DNA of 15,399 bases from a virus (Duplodnaviria; Heunggongvirae; Uroviricota; Caudoviricetes), in the IMG/VR virus record IMGVR_UViG_2778261088_000008; one strand, given 5' to 3'. Under the pieces are notes generated by a model. The model made no database searches. It saw only the letters and a list, made by a program, of their open reading frames with translations, and was not told where the DNA came from. Shown piece after piece: positions 12,412 through 13,047 of the stretch (position 1 is the stretch's first letter; each line of letters starts with the position of its first letter). A program made the position numbers and the translations under genes.

Positions 12412-12699
12412 CTAGTTGCCGGATGTTGGTGGATTTTCGCGTTTTAGTTGTTCATAAAAGTGCACAGCTTTAACCAGTTCTTCTGATGTAACTGGGACTG
12501 GTGAGGCAGTGAATAAGGCCTGAATTTGATAGTTCGGCCTGTCGTTACAATCCTCTTTTTTCGGTACATATTTCCAGTCACCAGACCACTACTTCCCCTG
12601 AAAGTCCGTAACGCCTTTTTTCACGTAGCGATATCGCCATGCCACTGGTTTTGCTTGCCCCGCCGTTTCATGCCCTTCCTGATAATTAATCTCGCTCAT
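12412..12699 (-). pseudogene. Early-region ORF interrupted by an in-frame TAG (36 aa, amber, then 59 more codons)
   Basis: ATG 12699: MSEINYQEGHETAGQAKPVAWRYRYVKKGVTDFQGK, TAG at 12591-12589, then frame stays open for WSGDWKYVPKKEDCNDRPNYQIQALFTASPVPVTSEELVKAVHFYEQLKRENPPTSGN to TAG 12414-12412. Its ATG overlaps the stop of the upstream read-through frame (ATGA). Confidence 0.4.
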
Positions 12700-12887
12700 T
12701 CATCGCCCCACTCATCACAATATGCTTCGACCGGAGTTTTTCCCGCTTCATAGTCATCACGCTAGGATTCGACATCAGCAGCACTTCCACCGCGTAACTC
12801 ACCATAGTCCATTAATAGTTCATCCCGCTCTTCAAAACTGATGTTATATTTAGCTGAACAAAAATCAGCCACTTTGTTCTTCCTCAT
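12696..12887 (-). pseudogene. Early-region ORF interrupted by an in-frame TAG (41 aa, amber, then 21 more codons)
   Basis: ATG 12887: MRKNKVADFCSAKYNISFEERDELLMDYGELRGGSAADVES, TAG at 12764-12762, then RDDYEAGKTPVEAYCDEWGDE to TGA 12698-12696, which overlaps the next ATG. Confidence 0.4.
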
Positions 12888-12936
12888 CGTCTTTTATTTC
12901 GTGGTATGAGTAATTGCAGTAGTTAAAGAAAATTTC

Positions 12937-13047
12937 TTATGCTCCGTCATGAATTTCCTCAGGTGTTGCGTCATCGTCCACTTCGAATACATCCTCAAAA
13001 TCTCCACCAGCTATTCCCGTTTCAATAATAATTTTGAACTTTCGCAT
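12937..13047 (-). CDS. Small acidic ORF (36 aa), hypothetical
   Basis: ATG 13047: MRKFKIIIETGIAGGDFEDVFEVDDDATPEEIHDGA, stop TAA 12939-12937. Weak SD; a GC-rich hairpin (13057-13073) lies just upstream. Shares the MRK(F/N)K start with the next ORF. Confidence 0.3.
   Translation of the reverse strand: MRKFKIIIETGIAGGDFEDVFEVDDDATPEEIHDGA

Follow-up and report, generated by a model that had tools for sequence, protein, structure and literature searches.

Four consecutive early genes on the minus strand of this DNA carry nonsense codons, and they are very probably pseudogenes produced by neutral decay of early genes of the Qin cryptic prophage of Escherichia coli. From upstream to downstream they are a SAM-dependent DNA methyltransferase gene and three small accessory genes, presumably once translationally coupled, which we call genes 1, 2 and 3. 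An earlier note on this DNA had counted three consecutive genes with nonsense codons; the series is real, but the count should be four, as the TAA of gene 1 at 12937-12939 had been overlooked. This is ordinary prophage decay, already flagged by the public annotation (PGAP) for genes 1 and 3. Our literature search found no paper discussing these genes, which were present only as PGAP pseudogene annotations.

The window, by which we mean the whole 15,399-nt stretch analysed, is the Qin cryptic prophage of E. coli, with the attachment site falling outside it. Positions 1-10514 match K-12 Qin at 99.9% identity over 10.5 kb and positions 14088-15399 at 99.8% identity over 1.3 kb, and within the window both identity and gene order are those of Qin in K-12 and O55:H7. 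The naming drew on the annotation of the E. coli O55:H7 USDA5905 and K-12 MG1655 loci. The genes run ydfO, gnsB, cspI, rzpQ, rrrQ, a holin gene, cspB, cspF and ydfT (the Q antiterminator), followed by ydfU, rem, hokD, relE, relB, ydfV, flxA and ydfW, and then by dicC and dicA; the interrupted genes are placed between remnants of replication genes and an IS-family transposase gene. The whole window aligns to E. coli chromosomes at up to 100% identity, with only insertions and deletions breaking the alignment, and at least 80% of it was found at one place in 674 complete E. coli genomes. O55:H7 and ECOR13 are among the carriers of this type of Qin, whose sources are humans, poultry, cattle, frogs and soil. 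Qin has been described as highly variable and mutation-prone in a review of 'grounded' prophages (PMC6379469).

A 3.57-kb segment of the window (10515-14087) is missing from Qin of K-12 MG1655, where ydfW directly abuts ydfX. The deletion takes out genes 1-3, the methyltransferase gene, a sok remnant and most of the transposase gene, which is why genes 1-3 have no K-12 gene names. The K-12 'gene' ydfW itself (window 10330-10479 in the O55:H7 annotation) overlies the 3′ end of the transposase gene. We also noted a 48.7-kb record that was submitted as the complete genome of a phage ('Escherichia phage PhiR42_1', PV340562.1, host ECOR13; L008 in our set) and contains this Qin segment at 99.9% identity; the three stops are the same as in the window, and the transposase gene, relBE and flxA are all present. 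Its appearance is that of a prophage region rather than of a demonstrably viable phage.

We read the minus strand of positions 12200-13400, listed its ORFs and translated all three frames. Reading and translation agreed with the earlier note on the in-frame TAG codons at 12762-12764 (gene 2) and 12589-12591 (gene 3). A search with the 731-nt interval in question matched 2529 of 5426 complete E. coli genomes as well as 36 phage records. In E. coli BEC1-S17-ESBL-09 (L003) the trio is uninterrupted and encodes a DUF7167 protein of 60 aa, then proteins of 58 aa and 119 aa, in the same order and with the same 8-nt and ATGA overlaps as in the window. The Shiga-toxin phage ArgO145 has intact genes 1 and 2 followed by an Ead/Ea22-like gene. 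In the alignments, the ancestral codons at the stops are AAA in gene 1, TGG in gene 2 and, where gene 3 is present, CAG in gene 3; these sense codons were drawn from L002, L003, L009 and L011 taken together. Because intact homologues have sense codons at these positions, both TAG-cut ORFs are pseudogenes. The view that they are inactivated genes rather than tiny genuine ORFs is thereby upheld, the uninterrupted homologues reading TGG and CAG where the window has TAG. A search of the intact proteins against the NCBIfam profiles gave no match, and a scan of 12200-13400 for promoters and terminators returned nothing relevant above shuffled expectation.

Stop/start overlaps of the kind found in translationally coupled operons are present at both junctions. 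Between genes 2 and 3, the TGA of gene 2 overlaps the ATG of gene 3 (ATGA at 12696-12699); between genes 1 and 2, an 8-nt overlap at 12865-12872 reads GTGGCTGA in the window and ATGGCTGA in intact homologues. Both overlaps are kept in every homologue examined, and the ATGA and ATGGCTGA overlaps are probably relics of an ancestral coupled operon. The ATGA had been taken as the arrangement expected if the extensions were once translated, a reading that gains from its being an ancestral overlap kept in all homologues. The length of the open frames says less. Of the stop-to-stop intervals in all six frames of the window, 6.0% are open for at least 58 codons, as against 1.6% of the intervals in shuffles of the local sequence, which makes the earlier estimate of roughly 0.06 for the long open stretch a fair one, and runs of 21-23 codons are frequent (20-31% of intervals). 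By itself, the length of a frame is no more than suggestive; it is homology that decides the matter.

Homologue alignment and PGAP identify gene 1 (12865-13047, minus strand) as a DUF7167 family pseudogene of 60 codons when intact. Its TAA at 12937-12939 stands where all intact homologues have AAA (Lys). The ORF at 12937-13047 comprises 36 codons, leaving an N-terminal fragment of 36 aa, and past the TAA the frame stays open for 23 codons up to the TGA at 12865-12867. The intact homologue (L003:3064-3246) matches Pfam PF23768 with 54.5 bits (cut-off 24.4) as well as PHROG 1997, and the window gene is its interrupted orthologue, with a regional DNA identity of about 89-93%. None of the gene 1 homologues examined ends at the TAA position. 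In genomes that are 100% identical, PGAP labels the gene 'DUF7167 family protein, internal stop'. Upstream of it, at 13052-13076 on the minus strand, sequence and fold point to a leader with an AGGAGG Shine-Dalgarno motif and then a 6-7 bp GC hairpin (CCGCCC-GAAA-GGGCGG). The motif lies ~23 nt upstream of the gene 1 ATG, with the hairpin standing between them. The hairpin appears in both the MFE and the centroid structures predicted, and homologues keep it, apart from one G-U change and one mismatch. In our view this leader resembles the 'split Shine-Dalgarno' sites of some T4 genes, where the effective spacing is shortened by a hairpin.

Gene 2 (12696-12872, minus strand) is, from the homologue alignment, a pseudogene of a 58-aa acidic protein of PHROG 519. 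A TAG at 12762-12764 takes the place of the TGG (Trp) of intact homologues, and the start of gene 2 at 12870-12872 is GTG in the window and ATG in every homologue. In the same frame, a 41-codon ORF from the ATG at 12887 ends at this TAG, so the remaining N-terminal fragment would be 36 or 41 aa long according to the start used; past the TAG, 21 open codons lead to the TGA at 12696-12698, as had been counted earlier. PGAP leaves gene 2 unannotated in the genomes we looked at, but it is no less clearly a pseudogene than the genes on either side. In vB_EcoM-606R7 (L010, ON470580.1; 2739-2925) the same Trp codon of gene 2 has changed from TGG to TAG. Unlike the window's, this TAG sits on the sequence background of intact alleles, and it is most simply an independent hit; the other possibility is a very short gene-conversion tract.

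Gene 3 (12278-12699, minus strand) is a pseudogene of the PHROG 660 family, recognized from alignments and PGAP; it is intact in L003, at 119 aa. The TAG at 12589-12591 replaces a CAG (Gln) of L003. It ends an ORF of 36 codons, which leaves an N-terminal fragment of 36 aa, and beyond it the frame is open as far as a second TAG at 12412-12414; this stretch holds 58 sense codons and not the 59 open codons given by the earlier note. There is also a frameshift near 12370-12400. Homology to intact gene 3 ends after codon ~93 (about 12420), and further downstream the 3′ end is similar to the C-terminal part of another gene (ArgO145 5098-5442), reading ...KPDYRLPDKAMSYLARNGLISMGNVLR in another frame. 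With homology lost at that point and a foreign-like 3′ end behind it, the second TAG lies in a rearranged junction. Searching the phage collection by tblastn, we found no intact gene 3 of the window type with the fused 3′ end, and the whole query was covered only by broken copies. This 3′ end may go back to a deletion-fusion or be a natural mosaic variant. Translation revealed no in-frame ATG or GTG past the first TAG near enough to give a sizeable re-initiation product. In window-identical genomes PGAP labels gene 3 'frameshifted; internal stop'. Intact relatives of gene 3 are found also in virulent Avunavirus phages, e.g. Av-05.

Two further records, F5505-C1 (L002) and vB_EcoS-640R1 (L009), have the gene 3 TAG in common with the window and carry an AA frameshift in addition. 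Their lineage is ~97% identical to the window around this TAG and only ~90% identical over genes 1-2. Comparison of L002 3692-3705 with window 12365-12421 showed that ~43-57 bp kept by the window are missing in this lineage; the loss at the gene 3 junction apparently took place between short imperfect direct repeats (CATCCGG.AAC / GCGGAAACC). Homologues that end at the TAG positions are thus just broken copies, L010 for gene 2 and L002 and L009 for gene 3, and the frames downstream of the TAGs are conserved in homologues as protein sequence under purifying selection.

The methyltransferase pseudogene (13177-13666, minus strand) was delimited by homologue alignment and codon comparison. Its interruption by a TAA had been reported in the earlier note and is borne out: the homologues, of ~160 aa, align as one piece across the TAA at 13310-13312, and the Stx2c-phage homologue (L012) has AAA there. 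A 1-nt insertion further downstream of the TAA shifts the frame. The 118-codon ORF at 13310-13666 matches only positions 52-165 of the 229 positions of PHROG 954. PGAP calls the gene 'frameshifted; internal stop' in strain 400660 and intact in some other genomes. Since it is truncated like genes 1-3, there are four consecutive genes with nonsense codons.

Other parts of the prophage are damaged in other ways. Relative to Qin of E. coli O55:H7, the replication module has two deletions of about 272 bp and 927 bp. These removed the O-like replication gene and made a chimeric 236-codon ORF at 13663-14373 (minus strand), whose N-terminal segment is weakly YdaT-like and whose C-terminal part comes from a DUF977 gene; the replication module was lost through deletions, not stop codons. 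The transposase ORF at 10336-11643 (minus strand) is open for 435 codons and ISNCY / IS1202-like, and PGAP marks the ISNCY-family transposase as partial, with its C-terminus missing. A full-length sok element identified by Rfam lies at 11717-11888 (minus strand), 3.3 kb from the hokD coding sequence (8275-8430). The two are contiguous in related prophages; here an insertion of 3.27 kb (8445-11717), with relBE, ydfV, flxA and the ISNCY-family transposase gene on it, lies between them. It is flanked by a direct repeat of ~16 bp, AGGAGAAGCAGGCTAT (8429-8444 and 11718-11733), which ends at the hok start codon. That relBE has integrated into hokD has been mentioned before (PMC6379469). K-12 has lost the surviving sok half.

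Qin lacks nearly all head and tail genes, and most of its late and structural genes have been lost. The early regulators dicA and dicC are intact, as are the toxin-antitoxin, cold-shock, Q and lysis genes. The cspA thermoregulator 5′UTR family gave full-length matches at 1584-1969 and 4479-4871 (both minus strand), which cover cspI and cspB with their leaders and are as expected for the Qin cold-shock genes. No Rfam family was matched in the interval of the interrupted genes, the matches in the window being limited to these two cspA 5′UTRs and the sok remnant, and ARAGORN found no tRNA gene within the window.

We counted stop and intact alleles by megablast of 55-nt queries centred on each mutated base against the 5426 complete E. 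coli genomes; with the query centred on the base, any match contains that base in an exact 28-mer. The TAA allele of gene 1 was present in 483 of the 5426 genomes, the TAG allele of gene 2 in 506 and that of gene 3 in 1159. Intact alleles, each counted in one sequence context, were present in at least 1278 of the same genomes for the TGG of gene 2 and at least 259 for the CAG of gene 3. The same three stops also occur in five independent assemblies at 99-100% identity. Sequencing error at the stop codons is excluded by their recurrence in these assemblies and in hundreds of complete genomes. Carriers of the stop alleles span diverse hosts, continents and serotypes, and the gene 3 TAG is common to two lineages that are ~3% apart around the site. 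As far as sequences can date them, the stops are old and widely inherited, not recent. The earlier description of the genes as 'recently inactivated' has to be given up, given alleles in 483-1159 genomes, the gene 3 TAG in two lineages and the many amino-acid changes.

These changes also speak to constraint. For pairs with synonymous differences, dN/dS was 0.02-0.1 among intact copies of gene 1 and 0.08-0.36 among intact copies of gene 2. On the window branch, the ratio of nonsynonymous to synonymous changes was 4:1 in gene 1, plus the stop, and 9:6 in gene 2, among them M1V and W16R at positions invariant elsewhere; the genes are short and the power of these statistics is therefore low. The amino-acid changes on this branch indicate that the window lineage has probably been under relaxed selection for a substantial time, and hence that inactivation was not recent. 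For gene 2, dN/dS on the window branch is raised yet not 1, so that either part of the divergence predates inactivation or the allele was already divergent. Between 4 and 6% of random substitutions in these genes make a stop, and the 54 window-specific substitutions lead to a neutral expectation of ~2.9 nonsense codons, an upper bound, since constraint still acted along part of the branch; the observed number is three. We also considered a biased mutational process such as deamination, which was rejected: of the four stop-forming changes, A>T accounts for two and G>A and C>T for one each, and the mixed spectrum of the lineage bears no signature.

The interrupted frames have, then, full-length homologues with a sense codon at each stop, belong to families under purifying selection with Pfam and PHROG profile matches, and show relaxed constraint or further lesions in the disrupted copies; the lesions themselves are real, the alleles recurring in 483, 506 and 1159 independent complete genomes. 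The decay probably proceeded as follows. The genes lie downstream of dicC in what would be the early-right operon of a prophage probably no longer able to replicate or form particles. Being useless to the host and probably rarely expressed, they would have ceased to be under purifying selection, and mutations could drift to fixation. Single-base changes created the stops, AAA to TAA in the methyltransferase gene and in gene 1, TGG to TAG in gene 2 and CAG to TAG in gene 3. Later damage comprised the loss of the gene 2 ATG, two frameshifts, the second TAG and rearranged 3′ end of gene 3, and many amino-acid substitutions. The lesions were then presumably passed on vertically to the ~9% of sequenced E. 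coli that now have them. At the premature stops ribosomes would terminate 63-174 nt early, and coupling could therefore no longer work.

Selection for loss would be another way to reach the same state. The module, or the whole early-right block, might be harmful when the prophage is partly derepressed, and knock-outs would then have been positively selected, the domestication of Qin sparing the useful modules (relBE, hokD, the csp genes, Q and the lysis genes). The harm might come from the intact proteins when the DicA-controlled early operon leaks; on this view they are all small and very acidic, which is often true of phage proteins that interfere with host functions. We consider this improbable. 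It would account for the repeated loss seen in the Trp-codon TAG of L010, the frameshift of L002 and L009 and the K-12 deletion, and other early products of Qin are known to be toxic, namely DicB and DicF (10.1101/2023.04.14.536235) and YdfD (PMC8835842). However, the known toxic genes of Qin lie across dicA and are retained in K-12 (dicB, ydfD), and the intact trio persists in many prophages and working phages. The gene 3 TAG allele also outnumbers the counted intact allele, which could hint at an advantage of loss, but the allele counts are confounded by clonal sampling, and such a bias in the genome collection is the simpler reading. With a nonsense count equal to the neutral expectation and with lesions of mixed type, as drift predicts, selective silencing is not needed. 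The earlier note had proposed a 'selective silencing of early functions', which is not sustained by three nonsense codons against the ~2.9 expected, nor by intact dicA and dicC, a replication module lost by deletion, a segment deleted in K-12 and the loss of late and structural genes as well.

Two readings would leave the ORFs functional as they stand. If the ORFs of 36-41 codons were genuine short genes, the frames behind them would be open by chance; open runs of 21-23 codons are indeed common by chance, and small proteins are annotated elsewhere in Qin (ynfR, ynfS, ynfT). We hold this to be very improbable: the downstream frames are 80-100% conserved with full-length homologues under purifying selection, the homologues that stop at the TAG of gene 2 or 3 are broken while none stops at the TAA of gene 1, and PGAP treats genes 1 and 3 as pseudogenes. 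Genuine micro-ORFs were rejected as a candidate on the strength of these full-length conserved homologues. We give next to no credence to programmed read-through or suppression, by which TAG and TAA would be decoded as sense and full-length proteins made. The frames do stay open past each stop, the stop/start overlaps are intact, and a glnV (supE) amber suppressor would put Gln, the ancestral residue, back at the gene 3 TAG. But no tRNA is encoded in the window, suppressor or other, and the hosts are ordinary wild E. coli with the standard code. Recoding sites are normally conserved as stops, whereas here intact relatives have sense codons and the stops are confined to lineages with other lesions; there are four such lesions with two different stop codons, in genes that have also lost an ATG and gained frameshifts, a second TAG and damaging substitutions. 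The lack of a tRNA or Rfam element, the unconserved stops and the frameshifts thus make programmed read-through very unlikely.

Neutral decay, the reading we prefer, has a practical consequence for annotation: these ORFs belong among the pseudogenes of a decaying cryptic prophage and should be listed neither as small proteins nor as recoding sites. Beyond good annotation its significance is small. It is a textbook-like case of the decay of a repressed, immobile prophage, with nonsense codons, frameshifts, start loss, deletions and insertions side by side. If the loss were adaptive after all, it would imply a host-toxic function for three uncharacterised phage protein families and a concrete case of prophage domestication by targeted gene inactivation.

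Genes 1-3 resemble the non-essential accessory early genes of lambdoid phages, the nin and ea/Ea22 genes, which are likewise small, densely packed and overlapping. In Qin-like prophages they come directly after the replication genes, and in ArgO145 they stand beside an Ead/Ea22-like gene; like lambdoid accessory early genes, they are mosaic and exchanged between phages. No membership of the lambda nin or ea families was detected in their sequences, and only DUF7167 and PHROGs 519 and 660 were matched. With ATGA-type coupled genes they share the same stop/start overlaps, conserved in homologues. Unlike intact coupled genes, the upstream frames of the window stop early and the start of gene 2 is GTG, and coupling is a prediction only.

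The closest comparison is with the pseudogenes ydfE, insD7 and intQ of K-12 Qin, which belong to the same element, the window being 99.8-99.9% identical to it. Unlike these, genes 1-3 are absent from K-12. The process is the same in K-12 Qin, where point mutations, frameshifts, deletions and IS insertions have accumulated in genes that the host can spare, and, there as here, what survives includes the cold-shock genes, relBE, hokD and the dic genes. Benefits of cryptic prophages to their hosts have been documented (PMC3105296), and general decay combined with the retention of addictive or host-useful modules is the accepted picture of a cryptic prophage (PMC6379469; PMC3105296).
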